Shown here piece by piece: positions 1,248 to 32,490 of a DNA stretch of 40,517 bases (positions within the stretch are counted from its first letter, which is position 1; every line of letters begins with the position of its first letter). The notes beneath the pieces are model-generated. The model saw only the letters and a list, made by a program, of their open reading frames with translations, searched no databases and was not told the origin of the DNA. The stretch lies in the NCBI GenBank assembly GCA_012837565.1, contig DUQY01000066.1, positions 1 to 40,517 on the forward strand. The letters are read 5' to 3'. Origin of the DNA: Bacteroidales bacterium (GTDB taxonomy: Bacteria; Bacteroidota; Bacteroidia; Bacteroidales; P3). The position numbers were made by a program, and so were the translations under genes.

Positions 1248-1830
1248 AGACATTGAACTCTTTTACCTCATTAATGGGCATAGGAGCGACTTCTTTGACT
1301 ATGTTTTTTCATTTCTAAGTCATAGCCTTAGCTTCATTATAGCTATTCTTGTTGCAACTGCGTTTCTTACAATAAAGAAGTTCAACAAGAAGTTTTGGAT
1401 TCTAATTATATTAGTTGCCCTATCATTTCTTTTTGCAGATAGAATATCTGTTATTTGTTTTAAGGATGTTTTTGAACGGCTTAGACCAAGCCATGCATTG
1501 GCAGGAGTTAATTTAGTCAAGCTTGATTCTTGGCGACTTGTTTTTGACCATAAAGGAGGGCAATTTGGTTTTGTGTCTTCTCATGCTGCAAACGTATTTT
1601 CATTAGCAACAATATTCGTTATACTTGGAAAAAGGTATAAAGCTTTCTCAATACTTATAATATTGTGGGCGGTTTTAGTTGCCTATTCAAGAGTTTATTG
1701 TGGAGTACACTACCCAGGTGATGTGGTTTGTGGAGCCTTCCTTGGAATATTAGTAGGTTATATTATTACGCTATTATACAAGTATCTCCAAAAGAAGTTT
1801 AAGTTCTTATCTACTGATATAAATAATTAA
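1228..1830 (+). CDS. PAP2-family membrane phosphatase (undecaprenyl-diphosphatase/phosphatidic acid phosphatase type 2 like)
   Basis: 200 aa, multi-TM. Carries the three PAP2 motifs: K..FERLRP, VSSHAA and [12 protein letters not shown]. It overlaps the obg stop by 20 nt. Confidence 0.85.
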
Positions 1831-3687
1831 TATTGATATATCGGAAGGAGAAACTCCACTTATGCGTGAGGCTTGTCCTATTGTTTTTGGACGAATCTTA
1901 GATAGCTTTTCTCTTGCCTCAAAGCTTAGGGAGTTTAAGGCTTGATAGTTGAAATCATCTTTAATAATTAGATTTTCGTGCTTTGATAACTTCTCCGATA
2001 TTTCTTGTTCCTTAACTATATAGCTCTTATATTTTATCTTAATTTCAGCTGACTCAATTGTTTCTTCCTTTATGCTTTCTTCAATTCCATCTATTTGTTC
2101 TTTAAGATAAGGAATATTATCAGCTAAGTCCGTAAGTGTTATTTGTGGACGAAGAAGTAGCTGACCAATCTTTGTTTTCTGATTTATTTTAGGGGTTTCT
2201 TTTTCATCTAATAGCTCGTTTACTTCATTTGGATTTGCATTCTTATTTTCAATAAAAGTTATTAAATCATCACAACTCTTTGTTTTTCTTTCAACCCTTT
2301 CCATTCTTTCTTTGGATGCTAATCCAAGTGCATACGAAAGAGGTGTTAATCTTTGGTCTGCATTGTCTTGACGCAAAAGAATCCTAAACTCTGCCCTCGA
2401 AGTAAACATACGATAAGGTTCATCAACTCCTTTTGTAATAAGGTCATCAATCAAAACTCCAATATAGCTTTCTGAACGTTTAAGAACAAAGGCTGGTTTC
2501 TCGTTAAGCTTTAGATGTGCATTTATTCCTGCCATTAAACCTTGTGAACCTGCTTCTTCATAGCCTGTTGTACCATTAATTTGTCCAGCAAAGTATAGGT
2601 TTTCAATTTGTTTTGTCTCTAATGTGTCCTTAAGTTGTGTTGGTGGGAAATAATCGTATTCAATTGCATAGCCAGGCTTTTGTATTACTGCATTTTCAAA
2701 TCCTTTTATCTTCTGTAAAGCTTCATATTGCACACTTAGTGGAAGTGAGGATGAGAATCCATTAATATAATATAAACTAGTATGGTTGCTTTCTGGTTCT
2801 ATGAAAAGTTGGTGTTGATTTTTCCCTGCAAAGCGGTCTATCTTATCCTCAATTGAAGGACAATAACGAGGACCTACACCTTGTATTCTTCCTTGAAACA
2901 TTGGTGAATGCTCAAATCCTGTTCTTAATATATCGTGAACATCCAAAGATGTGTATGCTAAAAAGCAACTTCTTTGAACAAGTGTTTCTTTCCTAAGATT
3001 CATAAAAGAGAATTGCCTAGGGTTATCATCTCCCTTTTGCTCCTCTAACTTACTAAAGTCAATACTGCGTCCGTCAACCCTCATTGGAGTTCCTGTTTTA
3101 AGGGTTAAGACCTCAAAGCCGTAGTTATTATGTAGGTCTTCTGACAACCCTATTGAATTCATTTCACCTATCCTCCCTGCTCCAAAGTTTTGCTCTCCAA
3201 TATGTATCTTTCCATTCAGGAAAGTACCATTTGTTAGAATAACACTTCTGGCCTCTATCTCTAATCCCATATTGGTTTTAACACCACAAACCTTACCGTT
3301 CTTTATATCCAAACCAATCACATCATCCTGCCATAGGCTTAGGTTTTCAATTGAATCCAAGACCTTATGCCAAGTTACGGAAAACATTATATTGTCCACT
3401 TGGGCTCTTGGACTCCACATTGCAGGTCCTTTTGAGAGGTTAAGCATTCTAAATTGGAGTGTGTTTTGGTCGGTAATAAGTGCTGAATAACCTCCTAGAG
3501 CATCAATTTCTTTAACAATTTGTCCTTTTGCAACTCCACCCATTGCAGGGTTGCAAGAAAGTTGTGCAATTGCATTAAGATTTTGTGTGATAAGCAAAAC
3601 AGAAGAACCTAAATTGGCTGCTGAGCAAGCTGCCTCGCACCCTGCATGTCCTGCTCCTATAACTATAACATCAAACTTTTTAAACAT
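1807..3687 (-). CDS. mnmG: tRNA uridine-5-carboxymethylaminomethyl synthesis enzyme MnmG (GidA)
   Basis: 626 aa. FAD motif DVIVIGAGHAGCEAA at the N-terminus, with GidA-typical GPRYCPSIEDK and TSRAEFR motifs. Confidence 0.95.
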   Translation of the reverse strand: MFKKFDVIVIGAGHAGCEAACSAANLGSSVLLITQNLNAIAQLSCNPAMGGVAKGQIVKEIDALGGYSALITDQNTLQFRMLNLSKGPAMWSPRAQVDNIMFSVTWHKVLDSIENLSLWQDDVIGLDIKNGKVCGVKTNMGLEIEARSVILTNGTFLNGKIHIGEQNFGAGRIGEMNSIGLSEDLHNNYGFEVLTLKTGTPMRVDGRSIDFSKLEEQKGDDNPRQFSFMNLRKETLVQRSCFLAYTSLDVHDILRTGFEHSPMFQGRIQGVGPRYCPSIEDKIDRFAGKNQHQLFIEPESNHTSLYYINGFSSSLPLSVQYEALQKIKGFENAVIQKPGYAIEYDYFPPTQLKDTLETKQIENLYFAGQINGTTGYEEAGSQGLMAGINAHLKLNEKPAFVLKRSESYIGVLIDDLITKGVDEPYRMFTSRAEFRILLRQDNADQRLTPLSYALGLASKERMERVERKTKSCDDLITFIENKNANPNEVNELLDEKETPKINQKTKIGQLLLRPQITLTDLADNIPYLKEQIDGIEESIKEETIESAEIKIKYKSYIVKEQEISEKLSKHENLIIKDDFNYQALNSLSFEAREKLSKIRPKTIGQASRISGVSPSDISILIIYISR

Positions 3688-4082
3688 TCTTCTTCAGCCT
3701 TTCTCATTTCTTTTTCTTGAGCCTTTGTCTTATCCTTTAATCCTAAAAGATGAAGGACCCCATGTATAATTACCCTATATAGTTCTTGTTCGAATTCTTG
3801 GTTTAGGTTTTGGGAGTTTTCCATAACCCTTTCAACACTTATAAATAAATCTCCTGCAACCTTATCCTTGTCTGAATAATCGAAACTAATAATATCTGTG
3901 AAGTCGTCATGGTTAAGGTAGTTCTGATTAATATCCAATAAGTATTCATCTTTGCAAAAAATATAAGATATATCACCTACTTTCATCCCTTTTTTTTCAA
4001 CCACAGACTTAATCCAAGCCTTAATCTTATTCTTTTTAGATAGAATATCCTTAGTTTCCACAAAATTAAAACTTATTGCCAT
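3663..4082 (-). CDS. ybeY: rRNA maturation endoribonuclease YbeY
   Basis: 139 aa with the zinc motif HGVLHLLG. It overlaps the mnmG start, consistent with an operon. Confidence 0.9.
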   Translation of the reverse strand: MAISFNFVETKDILSKKNKIKAWIKSVVEKKGMKVGDISYIFCKDEYLLDINQNYLNHDDFTDIISFDYSDKDKVAGDLFISVERVMENSQNLNQEFEQELYRVIIHGVLHLLGLKDKTKAQEKEMRKAEEECLKSLML

Positions 4083-9779: not shown

Positions 9780-11246
9780 TTAGCGAGAGTAATTTGGAGC
9801 CTCTCTTGTAATTGTTATATCGTGTGGATGACTTTCGGTATATCCTGCAGCAGTTATTTTAATAAACTTAGCTTGTTGTAATGCTGCAATATCTTTAGAG
9901 CCCGTGTAGCCCATTCCTGCTCTTAGTCCACCAAGTAGCTGATGAACAACCTCAGATATAGTCCCTTTAAATGGAACTCTTCCAACGATTCCTTCAGGAA
10001 CTAATTTATTAAGATCTTCTTCCATATCTTGGAAATACCTATCTTTCGAGCCTTGCTGCATTGCCTCCAAAGATCCCATTCCTCTATATGCCTTGTACTT
10101 TCTTCCTTCATAAATAATGGTATCACCAGGAGACTCTTCAACACCAGCTAGCAAAGAACCAGCCATAATGGAGCTTGCACCAGCAGCCAGTGCCTTAACA
10201 ATATCCCCAGAATATCTAATACCACCATCTGCAATAATTGGAATATTCATTCCCTCCACAGCATGTGCAACATCATAAATTGCACTTAGTTGAGGAACTC
10301 CAATACCAGCAATAATTCTTGTTGTGCAAATACTGCCAGGTCCAATACCCACCTTTAAAGCATCAGCACCAGCTTCCACCAATGCAATTGCAGCCTCAGC
10401 AGTAGCAATATTCCCAACAACAATATCAATATCCTTATATTTTTTTCTAACATTTCTAACAACATCAATCACATTCTTGCTATGACCATGAGCCGTATCA
10501 ATAACAATTGCATCAACTCCTGCTGCAATTACAGAATCAATCCTTTCATACATATTAGGAGTAATTCCAATTCCAGCAGCAACCCTCAAACGTCCCAAAG
10601 TATCCTTGCAAGCATTTGGACGCTCCTTAACCTTAATAATATCTCTGTAAGTAATTAGCCCAACAAGCTCTCCTTTATCATTAACCACAGGCAGTTTTTC
10701 AATCCTATGTTGTTGAAGGATATCTGCAGCCATCTCAAAGTCTGTGTTCTCAGGAGCAGTAACAACTTCTTTTGTCATCACCTCTGTAATAGGGCGATGA
10801 AGATCTCTTTCAAATCTCAAGTCTCTATTGGTTACAATACCAATTAACCTATGATTATCATCAATTACAGGAATCCCTCCAATGCTATATTCCTTCATAA
10901 GAGCTAAAACGTCCTTCACAATTGCATCCTTTTGAATTGTTATAGGATTTATTATCATCCCATTTTCAGCCCTCTTAACCTTTACCACCTCAGCAGTTTG
11001 CTGTTCTATGCTCATGTTTTTATGAAGAACACCAATACCACCCTCTTGTGCCATTGCAATAGCTAACTTAGCTTCTGTAACCGTATCCATAGCTGCAGAA
11101 ACAATTGGAATATTAATTGGAATATTACGTGAAAAGAATGAATTTGTCTGAACCTCTCTTGGGATAAGCTCAGAATATGCAGGGACTAATAAAACATCGT
11201 CATATGTAAGCCCTTCGCCAACGAATTTGTTTGAATTTGAAAACAT
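9780..11246 (-). CDS. guaB: IMP dehydrogenase
   Basis: IMPDH signatures: [11 protein letters not shown], tandem CBS domains, the catalytic loop [11 protein letters not shown] and GGIRYSGD. The track ORF starts at 11273, but that ATG overlaps a consensus -7 promoter box (11271-11278). The next in-frame ATG (11246, [17 protein letters not shown]) is the likely start. Confidence 0.93.
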
Positions 11247-11270
11247 CTCTTTTGAATATATTATATCAGG

Positions 11271-11278
11271 CAAAGGTA
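11271..11278 (-). promoter_or_regulatory. Bacteroidota -7 promoter element (TACCTTTG on the minus strand) for guaB
   Basis: The plus strand reads CAAAGGTA, which is the reverse complement of the TAnnTTTG consensus. It lies about 25 nt upstream of the ATG at 11246. Confidence 0.55.
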
Positions 11279-11384
11279 GTAATTATTTATTAATCCAAAA
11301 AATAAAAAACAGAAAAACTAAAAACCTAATAAGTTTGGCAAATAGCAAACGAAAAGTTTTTAATAAATAAAGGTTTAGGAGTTG

Positions 11385-11409
11385 GCACTAAGCTAACTTG
11401 TCTTAGTGC
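11385..11409. repeat. inverted repeat / hairpin GCACTAAG-N9-CTTAGTGC
   Basis: Perfect 8-bp arms at 11385-11392 and 11402-11409. They can be extended by 3 bp (GTT/AAC) with one bulged G. Confidence 0.7.
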
Positions 11410-11439
11410 AACACTGAACCTATTAAAGTACATTAGTTG

Positions 11440-11534
11440 AGTGTCACCGTTTCACTCTTCTTAGGGGGTGCGAAACAGAGAAACAAGATTCATTTCCAAT
11501 ACTTTGCAAAATAATGGTGACACTTTCGCCCTAA
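11440..11534 (+). other. two interleaved inverted repeats (pseudoknot-compatible)
   Basis: AGTGTCACCGTT (11440-11451) pairs with AATGGTGACACT (11513-11524): 12 bp including one G.U. TTAGGG(GGTG)CGAAA (11461-11475) pairs with TTTCGCCCTAA (11524-11534): 6 + 5 bp with a 4-nt bulge. The arm order is 1-2-1'-2'. Confidence 0.6.
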
Positions 11535-11645
11535 AACAGCCAAAATCATCAAAATAATCTGTGGCATTAAAAAGCATTTCAGTATAGTTTAGAATACCAA
11601 AAAAGAAAAGAGTCAAAAACTATTGATTAACTGCAAAAAAATTCG

Positions 11646-11653
11646 TATATTTG
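11646..11653 (+). promoter_or_regulatory. orphan Bacteroidota-type promoter (TATATTTG, with TTG at 11623-11625)
   Basis: Exact TAnnTTTG -7 box with an upstream TTG at about the expected -33 spacing. No ORF of 60 aa or more follows before 12382. Confidence 0.5.
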
Positions 11654-11723
11654 CAAAATAGAAATGATAGGAATAAGCCCTAGAGATTTCAGTCCAAAAC
11701 CCCATATAAATTTCCTTAAAGTA

Positions 11724-11787
11724 AAATGATGCACATCTTTCACCCCGAAAGATGTACATCATTTGATATGAAAGATGTGCATCATTT
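11724..11787. repeat. 17-mer present three times (one forward, two inverted)
   Basis: AAATGATGCACATCTTT is at 11724-11740. Its reverse complement occurs at 11748-11764 (AAAGATGTACATCATTT, 16/17) and at 11771-11787 (AAAGATGTGCATCATTT, 17/17). Confidence 0.9.
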
Positions 11788-11792
11788 GGTTA

Positions 11793-11897
11793 GTGAAACG
11801 AAGATTCAGTAATTTATTACAGCGTTTCAGAAAATTAGAACAAAGAAAGAAAAAAATGAAACGAAGATCTACGACGCTCAAACGAAGATCTAATATT
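11793..11897 (-). repeat. 21-bp-period tandem array, 5 units, core CGTTTCA (array A, minus orientation)
   Basis: Minus-strand units: AATATTAGATCTTCGTTTGAG / CGTCGTAGATCTTCGTTTCAT / TTTTTTCTTTCTTTGTTCTAA / TTTTCTGAAACGCTGTAATAA (degenerate) / ATTACTGAATCTTCGTTTCAC. The CG/TG of the core recurs exactly every 21 bp. Confidence 0.8.
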
Positions 11898-11925
11898 TGC
11901 AAGCTTTTCGATTGATTATTAGGTT

Positions 11926-11970
11926 TGTTTCCGTGTTTCCAACCCTATAGTAAGAGGAAACATGGAAACA
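11926..11970. repeat. 15-bp-stem hairpin / inverted repeat
   Basis: TGTTTCCGTGTTTCC (11926-11940) and GGAAACATGGAAACA (11956-11970) pair over 15 bp with one G.U on the plus strand, around a 15-nt loop. Each arm is itself a GTTTCC direct duplication. Confidence 0.85.
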
Positions 11971-12231
11971 CCAATAATATACTTTATAAAACGCCAAAGC
12001 ATAAATAAAACCTAAGAAAAGTTTCAATCCAAGAAAATATAAACTCTTAAGCACTCGTATTATATCAAGACGGGTGAAGGAAATGGAAAATTCCTACAAA
12101 GATATCATCTTCACGGGATTATTCTTGTTGCAGCGTTTCACTCTAATAAGGGTGGTGCTACAGTGCAATTTTGTTAATAATCAACAGTTTGTATAAGAAG
12201 CCGTGCAAAAAGGGTGGATATCATAGAAAAA

Positions 12232-12290
12232 CTCTGTTTAGTTAAAATACTTTTATCACTTGTTGAGGTAGATATATTTTAACTAAAGAG
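12232..12290. repeat. long AT-rich hairpin / inverted repeat
   Basis: CTCTGTTTAGTTAAAATA (12232-12249) pairs with TATTTTAACTAAAGAG (12275-12290): 13 + 3 bp with a 2-nt bulge and a 25-nt loop. Confidence 0.8.
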
Positions 12291-12348
12291 CTATACATAT
12301 TATATAGTGGTTTTTTCTTATCTATGATGAAAGTTGTAAAAATCATTG

Positions 12349-12356
12349 TATTTTTG
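12349..12356 (+). promoter_or_regulatory. Bacteroidota -7 promoter element (TATTTTTG) for the C25 peptidase gene
   Basis: Exact TAnnTTTG match about 25 nt upstream of the ATG at 12382. Confidence 0.55.
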
Positions 12357-12381
12357 CACGTTATTTATAATAGTATGACTT

Positions 12382-15300
12382 ATGAAAAATTTAATTTTCA
12401 AAATATTTGTTCTATCTATATTGATATTTAGTTCAAAATTAAATGCTCAAATTATTATTGGGCAAGACGTTAAAAATCCAAATCCAATTATTAAGGAATC
12501 ATCTGAGAGTTTGTTCCTTTCCCAAACATTTTCTTTTTTAAGCCTTGAAAAGGAGAGGACAGAAAAAGGTATCTTCTATAAAATTGATATGGGAGATGAC
12601 TTTGGAACAAGCCAAAAGGTTGGTATGCCTGAATTGCCTACTTATTCTCAATTGATTGAGCTGCCTTACGGTGCTAATATAGAAATAGAGTATAGCAATG
12701 TGGTTACTGAAACGTATGCATTAGAAAAATATGGTGATTATAAAATTATACCATTTCAAAAATCTATGTCTAAGAGTGAGACTGAAAATCCTTTTCTTAT
12801 TAATGAAAAAGAATATCTTAATAATAGATACTTTGGTAGTGACTTGGTTGTGGTTGAGAAATTAGGTTTTATGGGTGGGGTTAGATTGGCTCGTTTGTCT
12901 GTTTCGCCAATCCAATATAATCCTGTTTCTAACACAATTATTTTTGTTAAATCTTTTGATGTTAACATTAAGTTTGTCAATATTGATATTAAGGCAACCA
13001 GTGAGGCTAAACTCAAATATAATAATCAGCAATCTGCTTTTGTGGGACAGAAAACCGTTAATAATAAGGGTTTGTCGGCAGCAGTTCCTTCCTACCCAAT
13101 TAGTAGGCCTTTGAAAATGATTATTCTTTCAGATCCTATGTTTGAAGATGCTTTGCAGCCTTTTATTCTTTGGAAGAAAGAAAAAGGGATTGAAATTGTT
13201 GAGCTGTATAAAGGTCAGCCTGGTGTTGGAACAACAAGAGAGGAGATGAAGGACTATCTGAAATCGTTATGGGATAATGCCTCTGCTAGTTCTCCTGCGG
13301 CTGATTATCTTCTAATTTGTGGTGATATTGACCAAATTCCTGCTTTTCCTATTGTAAATAATCAAAGTGGTTCGGCTCCAACCGATTTATATTATGCTGA
13401 ATATACTGGTGACTATTTGCCAGACTTGTTTTATGGTAGGTTTTCTGCAGAAACTGTTGCTCAAATGACTAATATAGTTAATAAGACTATTGTGTATGAG
13501 AAGAAGCTAATGCAAGATAATTCATACTTAAAGAAAACTCTCTTGGTAGCTGGTAGAGAAACTAACTCTCCTGCTCCAACTTGTGGTAATGGTCAGGTTA
13601 ATTATGCAAAGTCTTACCTTAAAAACAATCCTAATATTGATACCTTGGTATATTATAATCCTGCCTCTGGTAGTCTTTCTACTCAAATTAGAGATAGTAT
13701 TGCAAAAAATGGATATTCATATATTAATTATACAGCTCATTGTGATCAAAATGGTTGGGCAAGTCCTACATTGTCACAGTTTGATGTTAAGAATATGAAT
13801 AATACTGGAAAATACTCATTCTATATTAACAATTGTTGTCTCTCAAGTAAGTTTAGTGATAATGAATGTTTTGCTGAAGCTATACTAAGAGCTGATAATA
13901 GAGGTGGTGTTGGTGCTATTGGTGGAAGTAGTTATACATATTGGTTTGAAGACTTTTATTGGTCTGTTGGTAGTAAGGCGATAAATGTAAATCCTACTTA
14001 TGATGCTAATAATTTAGGGTCTTACGATAGGATATTTCATAAAAACAATGAGCCTTATGCAAAATGGTACACAACTGCTGGACAAATTATGCAAGCAGGG
14101 AACCTTTCTGTTCAACAATATGGCTCAAACTTATCAAATTATTATTGGGAGATATACCACTTAATGGGCGATCCATCACTTACTCCTTATATTGGTTTGC
14201 CAATAACTATGACAAGCACTATTGCTGATTCAATTCCTCTTGGAACATCAAGCATTTCAGTTTCAACAGATCCCTATGCTTTTGTTGGAGTCTCTCAAAA
14301 TGGCATCCTATTAGGAGCTTCTCAGGCAGATGTAAACGGAAGTGTTGATATTAATTTCAATAACCCAATTAATCTTCCCGAGAATCTAAAGGTAGTGATT
14401 ACTAATCAGTTTTCAAGCCCTATTATCGATTCAGTAGCGATCTTTCTTCCAACTTATCCTTTAATCAATTTAAGTTCGATTAAGTATTATAATACTCAAA
14501 TGGAGGAAGTGACAGAGCTGAAAAACAATGAAGATTATTTTATAAGTCTAAATGTTGAAAACCTTGGCACCGTAGCAATTGATAGTGTGAGATTAGAAAT
14601 TAACAATACGCCAAATTTGCAATTTAGTGACTCAGAAGAATATATTGGATTTGTTGGAGCAATGTCTAGTGTTGTTTCTGAGCATTCTCTGAAGGTGAAG
14701 ATATTAGATGGAGTTTTAGACAGAACTCAAATCGATTATATAATTAATATTTCAGGCCAGAATGGTTATTCCGATTATAAGGACTTTTCAATTGAAGCTT
14801 TTTGTCCTGTGCTGGAGATAGAAAACATAAAACTTTCAAAAGACAGTAATAATAGTTTACTAACAGGACAAGGAGTTATTATTAGTTTTGATATAAAAAA
14901 TACAGGAAGAAACTTGTCAGATGCAGGGAGTGTTTCTTTGCTTGCTATGTCTTCTAACCTTTCTTTCCCAGAAGATAGCACAGACGCCTTAAGTCCTTTG
15001 CCTCCAAATGCTTCATTATCGTATGCTTTTAATCTTATCTTAGATGATGGCATTTCAAATAACAATTATATAAAATTCAAAATATCTGCAATTGCTAATC
15101 AATACTTCAATGCAACAATATACGATTCTATCATATTGAATGGACAAATTGAAACCTTTGAAACAAGAGATCTTAGATCTTTCCCTTGGATTAATGATGC
15201 TCTTAGGCCTTGGGTTATTGAATCAGCTGTAGAGAATGTTTATCAAGGACAATATTCTTTGAAATCAGGTGCCATTACAAATTCCCAAAATACTACTTTA

Positions 15301-15825
15301 AGTATTAATATGAAATCAATATCTAATGATAGCATATCTTTCTTTCTAAAGACTTCCACAGAAAATGGTTATGATAAACTTTTGTTTTATATAGATAATT
15401 CTTTTGTTTTTGAGAAATCAGGAGAATATAATTGGAAAAGGTATGCCTTTGCAGTAAGTGCTGGAGATCATAATTATAAATGGGTATATGAGAAAGATTA
15501 CTCTACAAATAATGGTGATGATGCTGTGTGGTTAGATAATATTAAATTCCCTTTAAATGCAAAAGTAATCTCTATTGATGAAATTGAAGATAAAATGGAT
15601 AAGATTACGATTTATCCGAATCCGGCTAAAGACATAATCAATATTACTAACCTGAAAGCTAATTCAGATATTGTTTTATATGATTTATTAGGAAGAGTTA
15701 AGCTGTCCATTTCAAACAAAATGGTTTCAAATATTAATGTTTCAAGTCTTCCAAACGGAGTCTATTATTTGTCCATTAGATCTGATAAGAGTATTATTAA
15801 TAATAAAATTATTATAGCAAGATAG
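12382..15825 (+). CDS. peptidase C25 (gingipain-like cysteine protease) family protein with a T9SS C-terminal sorting domain
   Basis: 1147 aa. Signal peptide MKNLIFKIFVLSILIFSSKLNAQ. C25-like catalytic region (LLICGDIDQIP, YINYTAHCDQNGW, FYINNCCLSSKF). A lectin/MAM-like jelly-roll segment sits near the C-terminus. The terminal ~80 aa (ITIYPNPAKDIINI...NGVYYLSI...) match the Por/T9SS CTD pattern. Confidence 0.8.
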   Translation: MKNLIFKIFVLSILIFSSKLNAQIIIGQDVKNPNPIIKESSESLFLSQTFSFLSLEKERTEKGIFYKIDMGDDFGTSQKVGMPELPTYSQLIELPYGANIEIEYSNVVTETYALEKYGDYKIIPFQKSMSKSETENPFLINEKEYLNNRYFGSDLVVVEKLGFMGGVRLARLSVSPIQYNPVSNTIIFVKSFDVNIKFVNIDIKATSEAKLKYNNQQSAFVGQKTVNNKGLSAAVPSYPISRPLKMIILSDPMFEDALQPFILWKKEKGIEIVELYKGQPGVGTTREEMKDYLKSLWDNASASSPAADYLLICGDIDQIPAFPIVNNQSGSAPTDLYYAEYTGDYLPDLFYGRFSAETVAQMTNIVNKTIVYEKKLMQDNSYLKKTLLVAGRETNSPAPTCGNGQVNYAKSYLKNNPNIDTLVYYNPASGSLSTQIRDSIAKNGYSYINYTAHCDQNGWASPTLSQFDVKNMNNTGKYSFYINNCCLSSKFSDNECFAEAILRADNRGGVGAIGGSSYTYWFEDFYWSVGSKAINVNPTYDANNLGSYDRIFHKNNEPYAKWYTTAGQIMQAGNLSVQQYGSNLSNYYWEIYHLMGDPSLTPYIGLPITMTSTIADSIPLGTSSISVSTDPYAFVGVSQNGILLGASQADVNGSVDINFNNPINLPENLKVVITNQFSSPIIDSVAIFLPTYPLINLSSIKYYNTQMEEVTELKNNEDYFISLNVENLGTVAIDSVRLEINNTPNLQFSDSEEYIGFVGAMSSVVSEHSLKVKILDGVLDRTQIDYIINISGQNGYSDYKDFSIEAFCPVLEIENIKLSKDSNNSLLTGQGVIISFDIKNTGRNLSDAGSVSLLAMSSNLSFPEDSTDALSPLPPNASLSYAFNLILDDGISNNNYIKFKISAIANQYFNATIYDSIILNGQIETFETRDLRSFPWINDALRPWVIESAVENVYQGQYSLKSGAITNSQNTTLSINMKSISNDSISFFLKTSTENGYDKLLFYIDNSFVFEKSGEYNWKRYAFAVSAGDHNYKWVYEKDYSTNNGDDAVWLDNIKFPLNAKVISIDEIEDKMDKITIYPNPAKDIINITNLKANSDIVLYDLLGRVKLSISNKMVSNINVSSLPNGVYYLSIRSDKSIINNKIIIAR

Positions 15826-15832
15826 AAGAATA

Positions 15833-16672
15833 ATGCAAGATACTACTAACAATCATCTTGATGTAGCTCAAACGCAAAAAACGATTTATCCAATATTTAT
15901 TGTATCTGATTCTATTCAAAAAGATACAAATATAGTTGGGTTTAAAGATTATGTAGTAAGAACCCTAAATTGCCATACTGAACCTTTAATAGAAAGAGAA
16001 TCTTTGTTTGGTAAAAAGACCTATGTGAATAAAGATTTAAAGATGCTTGAACGACCAAACACATCTGCTGAGGGCTGGATATATGGTGTTATTTTTCTTG
16101 CTGCAATTTTTTATTTGCTACTAATAAAGATTTTTTCTAACAAAATTAAGCACGTAATTAGAGGGACATATAGCCATTTAACTTTGTTTATTATTCTTTC
16201 TTTTCTTTTTATTCCAGTCTTTGCTCTCTTGTGTTATACGCCCATAAGTCAGTATAATTATTACTACTATTTCCCAATTAAATCTCATTTCGCAATATTC
16301 CTTTTGCTTTACTTCATTATCCTTACTTATGCTTTAATTAAATACATTTTGATTTTTTTCTTTGGAGAGCTCTTTAGGGCAAGGTCAATATGTTTTAACT
16401 ATAATTCAAATCAACTAGGGTTCTATTTTATTAGTGGAATAATTATGATTCCTTTTCTCTTTTTCTATTATTATTCGCCTAATAGTGCTAAAGATAATAT
16501 ATTAATAGCAATATTAATTGTGTTTTCTATATTGTTGTTAACTAGGCTTGTAAAGGGACTCCTCCTAGTTTTGAGTGAAACAAAGTTCTCTAAATTCTAT
16601 TTATTTGTTTATCTTTGCATTCTCGAATTTATACCATTAATAATAATATATAAGTCTTTAATTGATTATTAA
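15833..16672 (+). CDS. polytopic membrane protein (DUF4271-like)
   Basis: 279 aa. A soluble N-terminus is followed by about 6 hydrophobic helices. Placement immediately upstream of a HemD-like gene matches the DUF4271 context I recall from Bacteroidota. Confidence 0.55.
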   Translation: MQDTTNNHLDVAQTQKTIYPIFIVSDSIQKDTNIVGFKDYVVRTLNCHTEPLIERESLFGKKTYVNKDLKMLERPNTSAEGWIYGVIFLAAIFYLLLIKIFSNKIKHVIRGTYSHLTLFIILSFLFIPVFALLCYTPISQYNYYYYFPIKSHFAIFLLLYFIILTYALIKYILIFFFGELFRARSICFNYNSNQLGFYFISGIIMIPFLFFYYYSPNSAKDNILIAILIVFSILLLTRLVKGLLLVLSETKFSKFYLFVYLCILEFIPLIIIYKSLIDY

Positions 16673-16693: not shown

Positions 16694-17572
16694 ATGTGTA
16701 AACCAGTAATAAAAAATATTCTTATTTCTCAACCTGCACCCTTAGATATTGAAAAGTCTCAATATAAAATATTAATTGATAATCATGGTGTTGAATTAAC
16801 TTTTAATAAGTTCTTCGATATAACTGGAGTATCAAACAAGGATTTTAGAGCCTCTAAGATTAATATTTTAGATCATTCAGCTGTTATAGTAACTAGTAAA
16901 TTGGCTATTGATAATTATTTTAAATTGGCAAAAGAACTTAGATTAGTTATTCCTGAGAGTATGAAGTTTTTCTGCGTTACAGAAGGTATTGCAAACTATT
17001 TACAAAACTATATTCAATATAGAAAGAGAAAGATTTTTTATGGTAAATTGCAGTTTTCAGAACTAATAGATACAATGTTAAAGCACAAGGAAGAAACTTT
17101 TCTATATCCTTGTTCGGATGATACCTCTTCGGAAAACTTTAAGCTTCTCGACAAAAATAAGATTAAATATACCAAGTCAGTAATGTATCGTTCTGTTCCA
17201 AATGATTTAAGAGGATTAGATATTGAGAAATTTGATATGGTTGTGATGTTTAGTCCAATTGGCGTTAGCTCTTTTATCGAAAGTTTCCCTAGTTATAACC
17301 ATGAGAAAATAGATTTTGCAGCATTTGGATTAAGTACACAGGCAGCATTAAAAGATGCTAAAATAAAAACAATTATTCCTGCACCTACCCCAGCCACTCC
17401 TTCAATGATTATGGCTATTGATAGATATATGAGCCTTAGTCCAGAGGAAAGGGCAGAGCATAAGGAGAGGATTGAAGAGGAATTTAATAAGAAAGCAGAT
17501 AAAAAATCTTCTGTTACTTTAAAAGTTACGACCAAAAAGACATCTAAACCCAAGTCAAATAATATTGGTTAA
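16694..17572 (+). CDS. uroporphyrinogen-III synthase (HemD)-like protein with a lysine-rich C-terminal tail
   Basis: 292 aa. The two-lobed HemD-like layout is judged from sequence character and the conserved DUF4271-HemD-rnpA context. The tail is KKADKKSSVTLKVTTKKTSKPKSNN. Its stop overlaps the rnpA start (TAATG). Confidence 0.55.
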   Translation: MCKPVIKNILISQPAPLDIEKSQYKILIDNHGVELTFNKFFDITGVSNKDFRASKINILDHSAVIVTSKLAIDNYFKLAKELRLVIPESMKFFCVTEGIANYLQNYIQYRKRKIFYGKLQFSELIDTMLKHKEETFLYPCSDDTSSENFKLLDKNKIKYTKSVMYRSVPNDLRGLDIEKFDMVVMFSPIGVSSFIESFPSYNHEKIDFAAFGLSTQAALKDAKIKTIIPAPTPATPSMIMAIDRYMSLSPEERAEHKERIEEEFNKKADKKSSVTLKVTTKKTSKPKSNNIG

Positions 17573-17979
17573 TGTTTCAATTCACTAAGAGAGAAAAACT
17601 ATGTAATAGGACTGAAATACAAAACCTATTTACAAAAGGACAAAGCTTTCTAGTCTATCCTTTTAGTGTGAGATATACTATCAAAGATAATACTATTTCC
17701 CCTAAGGTTAAGGTCTTGTTATTGTCTCCCAAAAGATATCAAAAACTAGCTGTTAGCAGAAACAGGGTTAAACGATTAATTAGAGAAACTTATAGGTTAA
17801 GTAAAGACAGTATTATTAAATTTGCTAAGCAAGAAGCTTGCGATATTAATATTTCAATATCGTTGGTTAGTAAAGATATCCCTACTTATTATTTGGTTGA
17901 CGAGTCAATGAAGAAGATATTAAATAGAATAATTATTAATACTAAGGATGATATTGAAAAGAATTGTCAAAATAATTAA
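17572..17979 (+). CDS. rnpA: ribonuclease P protein component
   Basis: 135 aa, basic. The RNR-like motif [12 protein letters not shown] is present, and it is followed by yidD as in most bacteria. Confidence 0.85.
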
Positions 17980-18201: not shown

Positions 18202-18636
18202 TTAGAATGGCAAGTCGCCTAAGTCATCACCCTCTGGTAATTCATTAATAATACTCGATAGATTTATTTCTGCATTATTAATACGATTTGTATCATTTTG
18301 AGGGTTATTACTTTTAGATAGAACAGTAAAAGTATCGGCAATTATGTCAACAAAGTACTTCTTATTCCCTTCTTTGTCATCCCATTGTCGAGATCTTATT
18401 TTACCTTCAAGATAAATTTGCATACCTTTCTTTAATACTTTCTCAGCATTTTCTGCTATATTATTCCAACAAACAATGTTATGCCATTCAGTTTGTTCAA
18501 CTTTATGACCATCCTTGTTTTTATACGATTCGTTAGTTGCCAAACTAAAAGTAGCTTTCTTTATTCCATCAAAAACTAAAATATCAGGGTCTTTTCCCAG
18601 ATTCCCAATTAAAATTACTTTATTAACTCCAGCCAT
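18202..18636 (-). CDS. ssb: single-stranded DNA-binding protein
   Basis: 144 aa. OB-fold N-terminus (MAGVNKVILIGNLGKDP...TEWHNIV.W) and an acidic tail ending in DDLGDLPF. Confidence 0.92.
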   Translation of the reverse strand: MAGVNKVILIGNLGKDPDILVFDGIKKATFSLATNESYKNKDGHKVEQTEWHNIVCWNNIAENAEKVLKKGMQIYLEGKIRSRQWDDKEGNKKYFVDIIADTFTVLSKSNNPQNDTNRINNAEINLSSIINELPEGDDLGDLPF

Positions 18637-18687
18637 AATCCAATTTATTTTTTAAATTTAATGATAGAAAACAAGTATTTAATGATG

Positions 18688-18695
18688 CAAATATA
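18688..18695 (-). promoter_or_regulatory. -7 promoter element (TATATTTG on the minus strand) for ssb
   Basis: The plus strand reads CAAATATA, the reverse complement of TAnnTTTG. It lies about 50 nt upstream of the ssb ATG. Confidence 0.5.
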
Positions 18696-18929
18696 TAAAA
18701 TAGTTTTAATAAGTTCCTATTTCAAGTTATTAATGCAATCAATTAATAATAAATGACTAAAGTATAATAAATTTGTTTTTCTAATCAAATTAGAACGAAG
18801 CCCTCTTAAGTCTCTATCAAACAATGTTATATGAAGATGCTTGACCTTTTTGAAAAAAAGTAAATAGCAAAAAAAAAATTAAACTGATTGAAAATGAACA
18901 AATTTGTTTTGTTTGAAAAAATGTTTTTA

Positions 18930-18937
18930 TATCTTTG
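18930..18937 (+). promoter_or_regulatory. -7 promoter element (TATCTTTG) for the HU operon
   Basis: Exact TAnnTTTG match about 80 nt upstream of the ATG at 19017. Confidence 0.5.
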
Positions 18938-19016
18938 CAAAATGTTTATAATCAAAAAATGGTTAGACAAATTGAAATTAAAGGATTAATTTTTAATTAA
19001 ATAAGTATAAAAAGAA

Positions 19017-19301
19017 ATGACAAAAGCTGAAATCGTAGCAGAAATTGCACAAAGAACAGGATTAGAGAAAGTTAACATTCAAGCGACTGTTGAAACTTTT
19101 ATGGAAGTTATCAAGGATTCTCTTGGAAAAGGTAATAATGTATATTTAAGGGGCTTTGGAAGCTTTATCATTAAAAGAAGAGCAGAAAAAACAGGAAGAA
19201 ACATCTCAAAAGGAACAACTGTTATCATTCCTGCACATAATATCCCATCATTCAAGCCTTCAAAGACTTTTATGAATGAGATTAAAGTAAACGTAAAATA
19301 A
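19017..19301 (+). CDS. HU/IHF-family DNA-binding protein
   Basis: 94 aa. HU fold signature: MTKAEIVAEIA...V..F......L..G..V.LRGFGSF..K.RAE..GRN...G....IPA...P.FKPSK. Confidence 0.9.
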   Translation: MTKAEIVAEIAQRTGLEKVNIQATVETFMEVIKDSLGKGNNVYLRGFGSFIIKRRAEKTGRNISKGTTVIIPAHNIPSFKPSKTFMNEIKVNVK

Positions 19302-19317
19302 TTTAATATTTAAGAAA

Positions 19318-19410
19318 ATGCCAAGCGGAAAGAAAAGAAAAGGCCATAAAATGGCTACTCACAAACGTAAAAAACGTTTGCGTAAGAACAGACATAAGAA
19401 TAAGAAATAG
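19318..19410 (+). CDS. 30-aa highly basic peptide, candidate bS22-like small ribosomal protein
   Basis: ATG at 19318 to TAG at 19408-19410 gives MPSGKKRKGHKMATHKRKKRLRKNRHKNKK. It starts 16 nt after the HU stop and is followed by a strong intrinsic terminator. The K/R pattern resembles the mycobacterial bS22 / mitochondrial mS38 family. It is too short for the supplied ORF track. Confidence 0.55.
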   Translation: MPSGKKRKGHKMATHKRKKRLRKNRHKNKK

Positions 19411-19461
19411 TTTTCTTAATATGTTTTGATTTATAGAAATATAATTTCAAAAATGCAAATG

Positions 19462-19500
19462 TTGCGAAGCATTATTTAGCTTTAATGCTTCGCAATATTT
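19462..19500 (+). terminator. intrinsic terminator of the HU/small-peptide operon
   Basis: Perfect 12-bp stem, TTGCGAAGCATT (19462-19473) with AATGCTTCGCAA (19484-19495), followed by TATTTTT. Confidence 0.8.
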
Positions 19501-19521
19501 TTAATAATATTTACGGCTCCT

Positions 19522-21075
19522 ATGAATAAAGATTTAATAATTGATGTAAAGGATTTGGGAGTTGAAATCGCTTTGCTTGAGGACAAGCAACTTGTAGAAT
19601 TACACCAAGAAAAGAACGAAACAAGTCATCTTGTTGGCGATATCTATTTAGGTACTATTAAGAAGATAATGCCGGGTCTTAATGCCGCATTTGTTGATGT
19701 TGGGCATGAAAAGGATGCATTTCTACACTATCTTGACTTAGGACTTCATTTCAATTCTTTAGATAAATTTACTCGAACTTGTATCAGTGCTGATGCAAAG
19801 AGTGTTTTTATTGAAAAGATGAAATTAGAACCCGATTTAGAAAAAAACGGGAAACTTAATAATGTCTTAAAGCAAGGACAAATTATTTTAGTTCAAATTG
19901 CTAAAGAACCAATATCTACAAAAGGTCCAAGGCTCACCTCTGAGCTTTCTTTTGCGGGAAGATATTTGGTCTTAATTCCATTTTCAAATAAGATTTCTAT
20001 TTCTTCAAAAATTAAAAGTGTTGAAGAAAGAAACAGGCTTAAACGCTTAATCCAAAGTATTCGTCCAAACAATTTTGGCGTAATAATAAGGACAGTTGCC
20101 GAAAATCAAAATGTTGCTGAATTAGATGCAGACTTAAAAGATTTATTATCGAAATGGGATGTAATCTATAAAAAGTTACCTAAGACTCTACCTCCTAATA
20201 AACTTGTTTCTGAGATTGATAAATCAACCGCTATTCTTCGAGACTTATTGTCGGATGATTTTACAAACGTATTTGTAAATAATGCGGATATGTATGAGGA
20301 CTTAAGGTCTTACATGAAAACAATATCTCCAGAGAAAGTTGATTTGGTTCGTCATTATAAATTACAGACTCCAATTTTCGATCAGTTTGGAGTTTCAAAT
20401 CAAATTCGCAATTCTTTTGGTAAGGTTGTAACAATTAGGTCTGGTATTTATTTGGTAATAGAGCAAACAGAAGCAATGTGTGTTGTGGATGTTAATTCAG
20501 GACACAGAAGTAAATCATCGCAAGATCAGGAAGAGAATGCTCTAATGGTTAATATGGAAGCCGCTGAGGAGATTGCCAGGCAGATGAGACTACGCGATAT
20601 TGGAGGAATAATAGTAATAGATTTTATTGATTTAAATATTGCAACCAATAGGAAGCAACTTTTCACTAAAATGACTGAGCTAATGTTAAGGGACAAAGCT
20701 AGACACACTATTTTACCCCTAAGTAAATTCTGTTTGATGCAGATAACACGTCAAAGAGTTAGACCAGTGATAACTTTTGATTTATCTGAGATATGTCCAG
20801 TATGTGGAGGCACAGGCAAGATTAAATCTTCAATAATAATTGTAGATGAGATTGAAAATGATCTAAAATACTTAGTTCAAGAGCAAAACGAAAAAAACTT
20901 AACAATCATCGTTCATCCTTTCGTTCACTCATACCTTACAAAAGGATTCTTTTTATCACGAATAAAGAAATGGGAAAGAACGTATAAATCAAAAATAAAA
21001 TTACTAGAAGATACTAATTTTAGTCTTTTAGAATATCAGTTTTTGAATGCGAACAAGGATGCAATAAAATTATAA
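19522..21075 (+). CDS. rng: Rne/Rng-family ribonuclease (RNase G)
   Basis: 517 aa. S1 domain (GDIYLGTIKKIMPGLNAAFVDVG), DNase I-like region (VVDVNSG) and the zinc-link CPVCGGTG. Confidence 0.9.
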   Translation: MNKDLIIDVKDLGVEIALLEDKQLVELHQEKNETSHLVGDIYLGTIKKIMPGLNAAFVDVGHEKDAFLHYLDLGLHFNSLDKFTRTCISADAKSVFIEKMKLEPDLEKNGKLNNVLKQGQIILVQIAKEPISTKGPRLTSELSFAGRYLVLIPFSNKISISSKIKSVEERNRLKRLIQSIRPNNFGVIIRTVAENQNVAELDADLKDLLSKWDVIYKKLPKTLPPNKLVSEIDKSTAILRDLLSDDFTNVFVNNADMYEDLRSYMKTISPEKVDLVRHYKLQTPIFDQFGVSNQIRNSFGKVVTIRSGIYLVIEQTEAMCVVDVNSGHRSKSSQDQEENALMVNMEAAEEIARQMRLRDIGGIIVIDFIDLNIATNRKQLFTKMTELMLRDKARHTILPLSKFCLMQITRQRVRPVITFDLSEICPVCGGTGKIKSSIIIVDEIENDLKYLVQEQNEKNLTIIVHPFVHSYLTKGFFLSRIKKWERTYKSKIKLLEDTNFSLLEYQFLNANKDAIKL

Positions 21076-21136: not shown

Positions 21137-21220
21137 TTTTCTGAATCTTTGTTTTAACTTATTAGTTCTTTGTTTCAGTAAATTACTTCTTTGATTCAAA
21201 AAATCCTTTCAGCGTTTCAA
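21137..21220 (+). repeat. 21-bp-period tandem array, 4 units, core TGTTTCA/CGTTTCA (array B)
   Basis: Units: TTTTCTGAATCTTTGTTTTAA / CTTATTAGTTCTTTGTTTCAG / TAAATTACTTCTTTGATTCAA / AAAATCCTTTCAGCGTTTCAA. The TG/CG of the core is at 21150, 21171, 21192 and 21213. Confidence 0.8.
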
Positions 21221-21224
21221 TTTA

Positions 21225-21617
21225 CTATAATATATAATGCTGACGACTAAGGTCTTTGTTTTGGGATATAAGTCCTAAAAAGAATAAATCTACACTTACA
21301 AGTGTTCGTGGGTCATTAGTAATTTTGTGAAATTCCATATAGGATTCTTTGCTCTGGTATGGGTTTTTTATACAGAGAATAGTTTTGTCGTCGACTTGGT
21401 TTTGGATATTTTGAAATTCAATATAGGAACAAGAAATTTTAATAATGTTTTCTTTTCCAAATTCTTCTTCAAGTGCATGAATTAATTTGTTTGGATTTTT
21501 CCTATTTTTCTTTATTAGTTTGTTGTATAAATCAAACATATAGGGGGAGTGAATAGAATATTCGTTTTTCTTTTTTAATAAATGTAATAGCCTATTTTTC
21601 TGTTTGAATATATTCAT
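21225..21617 (-). CDS. hypothetical protein
   Basis: 130-aa ORF with its own TAnnTTTG promoter (21651-21658). I could not assign a family with confidence. Confidence 0.5.
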   Translation of the reverse strand: MNIFKQKNRLLHLLKKKNEYSIHSPYMFDLYNKLIKKNRKNPNKLIHALEEEFGKENIIKISCSYIEFQNIQNQVDDKTILCIKNPYQSKESYMEFHKITNDPRTLVSVDLFFLGLISQNKDLSRQHYIL

Positions 21618-32337: not shown

Positions 32338-32343
32338 GTTTCA

Positions 32344-32490
32344 GAAATTAACTCTGCGTTTCACAAAATTAACTCTGCGTTTCACGAAATTGAATCTTCG
32401 TTTTAAAATTTTGTTTCTGCGTTTCAGCAAATCCTTTCTTTGTTTCAATTTCCTAACTCTGCGTTTCATTTTCTTGTCCCTTGTTTGGCT
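32344..32490 (+). repeat. 21-bp-period tandem array, 7 units, consensus nAAaTTnaCTCTGCGTTTCAn (array C)
   Basis: Units: GAAATTAACTCTGCGTTTCAC / AAAATTAACTCTGCGTTTCAC / GAAATTGAATCTTCGTTTTAA / AATTTTGTTTCTGCGTTTCAG / CAAATCCTTTCTTTGTTTCAA / TTTCCTAACTCTGCGTTTCAT / TTTCTTGTCCCTTGTTTGGCT (degenerate). The CG/TG of the core falls at 32357 + 21n. A further partial unit (TTTGTTTCA, 32335-32343) fuses with the terminator T-run. Confidence 0.9.

Follow-up and report, generated by a model that had tools for sequence, protein, structure and literature searches.

The 40,517-nt window analysed here (Bacteroidales bacterium, GenBank assembly GCA_012837565.1, contig DUQY01000066.1, positions 1 to 40,517) is AT-rich Bacteroidales DNA with a GC content of ~32%. 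Two genes diverge from an island at 11279-12348: guaB on the minus strand (9780-11246) and, on the plus strand, a gene for a C25 peptidase that carries a type IX secretion system (T9SS) sorting domain (12382-15825). The guaB promoter -7 box (TACCTTTG, 11271-11278, minus strand), 24 nt upstream of the guaB ATG at 11244-11246, marks the left edge of the island and is 100% identical in the sister genome L007. The C25 promoter -7 box (TATTTTTG, 12349-12356, plus strand) marks the right edge. Because both core promoters sit at the edges, the ~1 kb between them is left unexplained by either. A preliminary description of this DNA had called the island free of open reading frames (ORFs), and no ORF of 60 aa or more is present on either strand in 11279-12381. 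The longest is 54 aa, and a Pfam search of all ten island ORFs (34-54 aa) returned zero matches. The island had also been described as the largest spacer. It is the longest non-coding stretch of the window, but only because the other large gap, 18636-19522 (886 bp), contains a gene of 94 aa. This is a classical HU gene (PF00216) at 19017-19301 (plus strand), and the gap seems empty if the ORF cut-off is set at 100 aa or more.

The island proved to be a patchwork: repeated hairpin modules surround a single copy of a unit that is widespread in Bacteroidales, and filler sequence specific to the window makes up the rest. Its functional core, ~11623-11900 on the plus strand, is one copy of this multi-copy non-coding unit and consists of the following parts.

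11623-11653, plus strand: predicted unit promoter, with TTG at 11623-11625, 20 nt, and TATATTTG at 11646-11653; recurs at a set distance in ~47 related units.
11660-11723, plus strand: leader, with a small 5' hairpin at 11661-11690 and then a linker, rich in C and poor in G, that ends in AAATTTCCTTAAAGTA; other copies have a hairpin in the same position.
11724-11787, plus strand: triple, consisting of three 18-nt near-palindromes with the core GATG-YR-CATC, repeated every 23 nt; unit 1 is the mirror image of the other two.
11793-11897, plus strand: 21-nt array of five registers of TGAAACGAAGAT units, one weak and one inverted.

The seven elements listed in the preliminary description were all found where it had placed them, apart from a pseudoknot reading discussed below. 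The Bacteroides promoter consensus is TAnnTTTG with a -33 TTTG (PMC7366714), and 11623-11653 has the form expected of a sigma-ABfr promoter (TAnnTTTG with TTG/TTTG ~19-21 nt upstream; PMC7366714). A single TAnnTTTG box is not rare, as the window holds 93 against 64 expected. The box recurs upstream of the palindromes in ~47 non-redundant relatives. The repeated 17-mer reported earlier is present in three copies (11724, 11747 and 11770) against 0.1 expected. These copies form the triple, whose palindromes follow the consensus AAAGATG-YR-CATCTTT and repeat each 23 nt. The triple (predicted fold -30.8 kcal/mol, z = -6.6) and the HP2 hairpin described below are the strongest of the seven elements. 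The array has units at 11794, 11857 and 11878, besides one that is weak (11836) and one that is inverted (11821). Its 21-bp family does occur at 21145-21177 and 32352-32468, as had been noted, and this signal is strong too (19 matches vs 6 expected; 0/100 shuffles). A covariance-model scan identified exactly one unit in the window, at 127 bits; a borderline match of this model in L035 proved to be an ordinary terminator.

The unit belongs to a large family. L-numbers denote the relative loci and contigs that were fetched, the first set being loci that encode relatives of the C25 protein. Metagenome contigs were scanned for three GATGNNCATC cores at 23-nt spacing, and the family was found in at least 119 metagenome contigs and three viral contigs, with 82 distinct versions among the matches listed. 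In a pattern-independent sample of 1.39 Mb, 17 of the 19 cores lay in runs at exactly 23 bp. Cores come nearly always in threes and rarely in fours. Several units may occur in one assembly (at least seven in JAEAME01 and at least ten in VSSQ01), some of them paired on one contig. In ~47 non-redundant units the TAnnTTTG box precedes the first core by 58-60, 79-86, 90 or 101-105 nt and is confined to one strand; these spacings apply to the AT-rich class, which includes the window copy. Downstream of the box are one to three small hairpins at the same place but with wholly different sequences among copies. Variants of the 5' hairpin include GGGCAAAC/GTTTGCCC, GGCGC/GCGCC, and CTACTC/GAGTAG vs TTACTC/GAGTAA. 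The next part is the C-rich, G-poor linker, often with AATTYCCTTAAA at its end.

On the other side of the triple, the ~21-nt array units are lineage-specific (tgaaacgaagat; agtccttgatta/atatcaaggtt; tcgccgattta; aaagatggcgttttc) and occur in both orientations, so that neighbours are able to pair. The array directly follows the triple in L004. A hairpin after the triple shows a G:C to C:G swap (four sequences vs four) plus a G:U pair. A hairpin with a T-run, read by eye as an intrinsic terminator, is present in L152 (CCTTGTTTT...AAACAAGG-TTTTATTT), L008 and L005/L181/L196. Same-contig paralogues (L157/L181; L110/L196) are alike from about the -35 region to the terminator only, without terminal inverted repeats (TIRs), as read by eye rather than computed; a transcription unit would have this extent. 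Paralogues in one genome differ in the leader and retain the triple.

The position of the unit varies. Triples were also found in L003, L004, L005, L007 and L008; only in the window and L007 does the triple lie between guaB and the C25 gene. L003, L004 and L008 have it just downstream of rng, 5.5 kb downstream of the C25 gene, a site at which the window has a 21-bp array alone, and in L005 the triple is at neither place but elsewhere. The gene downstream of the unit is co-oriented in 26 cases and convergent in 16, which indicates that the unit is not the 5' leader of a particular gene. No conserved neighbour gene of the units was found, except for HU-HIG genes (PF18291) in a minority of them.

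Several further observations were made on individual members. A GC-rich triple (TGATGCGCATCA, three copies with a 23-bp period) accompanied by GGGGGTGCG repeats occurs in phage-like contigs, including the IMG/VR contigs L200 (8696-8751), L201 (6730-6785) and L202 (8264-8319), as well as L125 and L171. It lies between portal-side genes and the tape-measure gene in L201, and in L200 and L125 an HU-HIG-like gene follows it at a distance of 70 nt. Units with a leader of 101-105 nt (L005 1160-1260, minus strand; L181; L196; L189) carry a further conserved module downstream, with a promoter-like TTTACCTTTCGCAAAAG, a 13-bp hairpin (GGAGTTTAAAGAC/GTCTTTAAACTCC) and a boxA-like GCTCTTTAACAATTAATAAG. 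A boxA-like GCTCTTTAACAATT downstream of the L005 and L181 units led us to consider an rRNA leader, yet no rRNA follows. Units often lie ~100 bp or less from contig ends, as in L110 (83), L164 (41), L135 (48), L162 (13765/13902) and L193 (14497/14556), a placement that fits repeats breaking short-read assemblies.

Rfam 15 at gathering thresholds gave zero matches in the window, in agreement with the earlier statement that the island is not tmRNA, RNase P RNA, SRP RNA or a riboswitch; 6S RNA and the Bacteroidales, Bacteroides and Flavo motifs were among the families covered. In E-value mode, 11100-12500 returned sub-threshold noise only, mostly miRNA hairpin models, and over 27 related loci nothing overlapped the unit. 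In the literature, a sequence-word search gave primers only, and a keyword search gave no description of the element. We conclude that the unit is an uncatalogued non-coding family with an unusual architecture.

Hairpin modules flank the core within the island, and two further arrays of the unit family lie elsewhere in the window.

11347-11439, plus strand: HP1 module, with the hairpin GCACTAAG...CTTAGTGC at 11385-11412 and its flanks; half of a dispersed two-hairpin module (z = -2.5).
11440-11536, plus strand: mod1, a diverged HP2-like module (CACCGTTTCACTCT-N4-AGGGGGTGCGAAAC); forms the left arm together with HP1.
11911-12015, plus strand: right arm, with the HP2 hairpin at 11927-11969 and then a tail that has lost the HP1 hairpin by deletion; runs in the opposite orientation to the left arm.
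12118-12166, plus strand: mod2, a third and partial HP2-like copy.
12234-12290, strand not assigned: 16-bp hairpin (z = -2.6), with no counterpart in any locus.
12291-12318, plus strand: short AT hairpin and GGTTTTTTC T-run, immediately upstream of the C25 promoter.
21137-21215, plus strand: another 21-bp array of the unit family, the second in the window; bordered by the terminator of rng on one side and by a 130-aa gene, with its 3' end, on the other.
32338-32470, plus strand: third 21-bp array (6-7 units); bordered by the terminator of gldN and by a hydrolase gene, the latter with its 3' end.

Mod1 is enclosed by a 13-bp long-range stem (11439-11451/11513-11525) and is 73% identical to HP2 in reverse complement. 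An H-type pseudoknot had been proposed for the inverted repeats at 11440-11534. The repeats exist, but the pseudoknot is not supported because a nested fold explains them with a z of only -2.2, which makes this the weakest of the seven elements. The hairpin described at 11926-11970 was recovered as the HP2 hairpin (z = -5.9), the two-copy module is present with 71% identity over 35 nt, and of the last element both the window-specific 16-bp hairpin and the hairpin with T-run could be located. HP1 copies occur in unrelated contexts (L006 299-389 and L152 505-580). The intact contiguous HP2-HP1 module is found at L006 238-389 and L152 505-625; in both cases a 21-nt array precedes it and the surrounding genes are unrelated. 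Inverted HP1/HP2 arms around the unit were seen in the window only. The most likely role of the arms would be that of hairpin insulators or terminators, which would keep the unit apart from the divergent promoters of guaB and the C25 gene.

Both other arrays of the window lie between convergent genes, beside terminators. In Escherichia coli, repetitive extragenic palindromes (REPs) in this position act as terminator or stabiliser elements (bioRxiv 10.64898/2026.03.23.713779). L004 carries a whole unit where the window has the array 21137-21215. The 130-aa ORF next to that array (21225-21617, minus strand) has no Pfam match and its 3' end abuts the array, and the 3' end of its L004 counterpart (19123-19515) abuts the entire promoter-triple-array unit.

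Comparison among relatives separates the parts of the island. The coding DNA of L007 is 92-96% identical to that of the window, and L007 is alignable with the island solely over 11247-11894 and the last 90 bp. Within this stretch the HP1 block (11367-11426) is identical at 60/60 positions and the triple palindrome at 56/60 (93%), with changes confined to the central YR steps and one spacer base. The leader is ~55% identical and the sequence between HP1 and the triple 55-77%, and a 55-bp indel separates the two genomes between HP1 and the promoter. Their 21-nt arrays differ by exactly one unit (window 11792-11812 vs L007 ~9571), which suggests copy-number change by slippage. In L002, L005 and L008 guaB also adjoins the C25 gene, with spacers of just ~215-500 bp (215 bp in L002). 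Upstream of the C25 gene, relatives resemble the window only from ~12292-12311 onward, on the T-run side. The view of the island as a single conserved entity was thus not borne out. The guaB-C25 spacers of L005 (9480-10003) and L008 (9480-10003), and the start of L006 (1-150), hold different and unrelated short tandem repeats, for example TTTAAATAAATTATCTCTTTAA (two copies), TTTTTCTCTGAGA (two) and AAAAAGACTTA (four). It seems that a spacer of the guaB-C25 type collects lineage-specific repeats.

We favour the reading that the island core is an independent gene for a small structured RNA, insulated by the hairpin modules, and give it a probability of about 50%; its transcription, and RNA as its active form, are predictions from the sequence. 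The comparisons do establish how the unit is built, that it is conserved and multi-copy, that it does not depend on the genes beside it, and that it lacks a coding signal. A housekeeping-type promoter would start the RNA near 11660. The RNA would open with a short protective hairpin and then a C-rich single-stranded linker, after which the three 18-nt palindromic units would fold into one long hairpin of ~64 nt. Unit 1 would pair with unit 3 or unit 2, and the leftover unit would self-fold. The RNA would end in the 21-nt repeat units, some of them pairing mutually. Because the leader varies between copies and the GAUG-YR-CAUC palindromes are invariant, the palindromes would most likely be the docking site for a conserved partner, and the remainder would be scaffold or copy-specific.

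The plus-strand non-coding transcript from ~11660 that had been proposed earlier gains support from the fixed promoter distance, from a 5' hairpin that is kept while its sequence varies, and from terminators in several members. Its proposed end at ~12316 fared less well, and an end at ~11900-11975 is likelier because the predicted transcript of relatives is ~200-300 nt. Complementarity between units 1 and 2 (88%) and units 1 and 3 (87%) exceeds the 76-79% self-complementarity of any unit, and one flank pair of the triple covaries (A-U 12/U-A 10). Of the features expected of a small RNA (sRNA) gene, a promoter and independence from flanking genes are present, and terminators are found in L152, L008 and L005/L181/L196.

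A number of points weigh against an RNA. No terminator is recognisable in the window copy. Folding of the family alignment with alifold gave about equal energies for both strands (-31.0 vs -29.0), counts of G:U vs A:C in the triple, leader and post-triple stems show no clear strand preference, and the leader folds less well than its reverse complement. A human-gut class (CGAGATGTACATCTC triple) has the triple without this promoter, and by eye the triple in L111 and L125 is apparently upstream of a promoter-like box. These triples, together with the invariant palindromes and exact 23-nt period, would be explained no less well by a dimeric protein that recognises double-stranded DNA, and a large part of the covariation could reflect common descent instead of independent changes. 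Since the evidence for RNA and DNA is mixed and the strand tests are indecisive, we rank a structured-RNA gene first and a DNA operator or iteron-like site second.

As a DNA-level element, the palindromes would be operators for a dimeric DNA-binding protein and the 21-bp units arrays of monomer or half-sites. The protein could be in, or work with, the HU-HIG family, and transcription could be regulated (roadblock) or incidental. We regard this explanation as possible, if less probable. In its favour, GATG-YR-CATC occurs almost solely in threes (rarely four) at exactly 23 bp, in the pattern-independent 1.39 Mb as well; its sequence and period are invariant over deep divergence, with the YR centre as the sole freely varying position; and the array units, found in both orientations, start with a palindrome half-site in L004, L096 and L143 (AAAGATGGCGTTTT). 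Triples that lack a promoter or, by eye, apparently precede promoter-like boxes (L111, L125), wobble pairs without RNA-strand bias, and the place of 7 of 8 HU-HIG ORFs 70-241 nt downstream of a triple point the same way. However, the units are less self-palindromic (76-79%) than mutually complementary (87-88%), and the promoter, compensated 5' hairpin and terminators are kept as a package that an operator alone would not need. Operators 75-135 nt within a gene-less transcript would be unusual, and most copies have no candidate protein gene adjacent. Dispersed repeats that resemble REPs and bacterial interspersed mosaic elements (BIMEs), or BOX elements, and accumulate in permissive spacers with local effects (termination, mRNA 3'-end protection) or none, offer an unlikely account. 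The elements are multi-copy and non-syntenic, guaB-C25 spacer repeats differ by lineage, array unit number changes by whole units, and the two other window arrays lie between convergent genes beside terminators, as with E. coli REPs. A few hundred nt downstream of the unit in L005 (949-1089, minus strand) and L178 (260-394, minus strand) there is also a sequence (..LNYIHNNPVKEEFVYLPEEYKYSSAIDY..) that resembles the C-terminal remnant of a Y1/RAYT-type transposase. This remnant was seen at one orthologous locus only. The unit comes with a conserved promoter of its own, terminal inverted repeats and target duplications are absent around it, and same-genome copies differ in the leader yet retain the triple. 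RAYT-mobilised REPs would be expected as tens to hundreds of imperfect palindromes of 20-40 nt that also flank a RAYT gene. The core, by comparison, is found almost solely in triples, of which the 40-kb window has one, and conservation relative to L007 has been put above that of coding DNA for HP1 and the triple (HP1 100%, triple 93%, coding 92-96%).

The remaining explanations are far less probable. A long structured 5' region or regulatory hub of the C25/T9SS protease gene, raised in the preliminary description, is very doubtful: the unit is co-oriented with the C25 gene in the window and L007, but that gene has its own conserved promoter, kept where spacers lack the island, the L002 spacer is 215 bp, and the unit lies after rng, 5.5 kb downstream of the C25 gene, in L003, L004 and L008 and in unrelated contexts elsewhere. 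We give almost no credence to a chromosomal replication origin, an idea suggested by the AT-richness of the gap, the switch of gene strand there and the nearby genes gidA, rnpA and ssb. Cumulative GC skew is lowest at 10-12 kb, where the island lies, genes diverge from the gap, and the gene neighbourhood is of the origin type: the window holds obg (246-1247), gidA/mnmG (1807-3687), ybeY (3663-4082), rnpA (17572-17979), ssb (18202-18636), hu and rng (19522-21075). Against this, the skew tracks the coding strand, no DnaA box (TTATCCACA-like) within one mismatch is present in 10690-16023 and no cluster anywhere, the repeats are multi-copy per genome, and the island is absent from L002; a parS-like site, sought in the same check, was not found. 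Equally hard to credit is a small protein of 26-34 aa (MHIF..ERC.SF..KD.H..) that starts at the ATG in palindrome 1. Of 45 units, 36 keep its frame open over 19-40 codons (besides two longer ORFs) and the start is in an A-rich context, but the frame is shut after 3-8 codons in the L004 type, the L008/L172/L173/L184 type and L127, with all other features kept. The conserved residues are dictated by the palindromes; read by eye, spacer codons vary at all three positions and post-triple differences are mostly non-synonymous and track hairpin pairing. A decayed gene or insertion sequence (IS) was rejected, as the island ORFs have no Pfam match and BLAST gave no match in plasmids or phages. The same negatives, together with paralogue similarity that runs from promoter to terminator without TIRs (by eye), speak against a miniature inverted-repeat transposable element (MITE) or IS remnant. 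A type III toxin-antitoxin antitoxin RNA, which would precede a ToxN/AbiQ-type gene, was set aside given the lack of a conserved downstream gene and repeats in both orientations, and a CRISPR array, with its repeats of 24-48 nt and unique spacers, given periods of 21 and 23 nt without spacers. Bacteroidota LexA (SOS) operators are GGA-N5-TCC or CTAA-N5-TTAG palindromes (PMC8565304), a motif different from the GATG-YR-CATC core.

One lead concerns a possible partner. In the 2.26 Mb examined, 7 of 8 HU-HIG ORFs lie downstream of a triple, at the distances given above (L097 839-1292; L096 1327-1744; L136 11585-12002; L111 338-719; L128 1769-2300; L125 355-898; L200 8821-9364). These represent six sequence flavours because L125 and L200 are identical, and one of the six is the GC-rich phage flavour. 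The account of the HU-HIG family describes rapid diversification and no conserved gene linkage, and such an element goes unmentioned (PMC5499826). Because most units, that of the window included, have no HU-HIG gene beside them, the link is a hypothesis on the partner and not a finding. The triple might be a shared platform, with HU-HIG proteins or a partner binding ~250-nt RNAs or cruciform-prone DNA, and orphan copies might serve as decoys, nucleation sites or trans-regulators of triple-bearing HU-HIG genes; we consider this speculative and rather improbable. If true, it would provide the first cognate nucleic-acid element for the HU-HIG expansion. The repeated place of the triple upstream of HU-HIG genes is in any case a testable lead for a family of obscure function (PMC5499826).

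For annotation, the lesson is that ORF-free islands in such genomes are patchworks of dispersed modules and not single regulatory regions of neighbour genes. To our knowledge, Bacteroidales, which include abundant gut and anaerobic-digester lineages, have no Hfq, ProQ or CsrA, and few non-coding RNA families are known from them. An easily recognised multi-copy unit would be an entry point to a new RNA-protein or DNA-protein partnership.

Among known systems, the REP/BIME clusters of enterobacteria (REP325, naRNA4) are similar to the unit in consisting of tandem palindromes with short linkers, scattered over intergenic regions and in many cases placed where two genes converge. Transcription, predicted for the unit, is a known feature of these clusters. 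The unit has no sequence similarity to them, and differs in its fixed number of three (rarely four) palindromes at a 23-nt period, in its own promoter and 5' hairpin, in the terminator seen in several members, and in its few to ~ten copies per genome against hundreds for REPs. It has no associated RAYT gene apart from the remnant in one locus. The REP325 RNA naRNA4 has been reported to bind HU (PMC4550694). The chromosome-organising role of REP325 has since been questioned, and REPs have local roles as terminators or stabilisers (bioRxiv 10.64898/2026.03.23.713779). The HU link of the unit, by comparison, is one of gene position, with HU-HIG genes downstream.

The intergenic genes for trans-acting sRNAs of Bacteroides (such as GibS) share with the unit a stand-alone, neighbour-independent arrangement, a TAnnTTTG promoter and, in some cases, an intrinsic terminator (PMC7366714). 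Unlike these genes, the unit is without an Rfam match and is multi-copy, with a variable leader, an invariant palindromic core and tandem 21-nt repeats.

Operator-plus-iteron regions occur at plasmid rep genes, and phage lambda has three 17-bp operators at 23-24 bp spacing. The unit is comparable in its three palindromes at ~23 bp and, in some lineages, its direct repeats of ~21-22 bp that start with a half-site. It differs in being chromosomal and multi-copy, without an adjacent rep, repressor or partition gene, and in having the triple inside a putative transcribed unit with hairpins and terminators. BOX elements of Streptococcus pneumoniae, with the modular structure boxA-boxB(n)-boxC, are likewise modular intergenic elements, in which the number of internal tandem modules varies and a strong secondary structure is predicted. 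They come from another phylum and have no sequence relation to the unit, whose left edge is marked by a conserved promoter. With no sequence or Rfam relation to them, a fixed unit number, its own promoter and a low copy number, the unit belongs to neither REP/BIME clusters nor the known Bacteroides sRNA genes.

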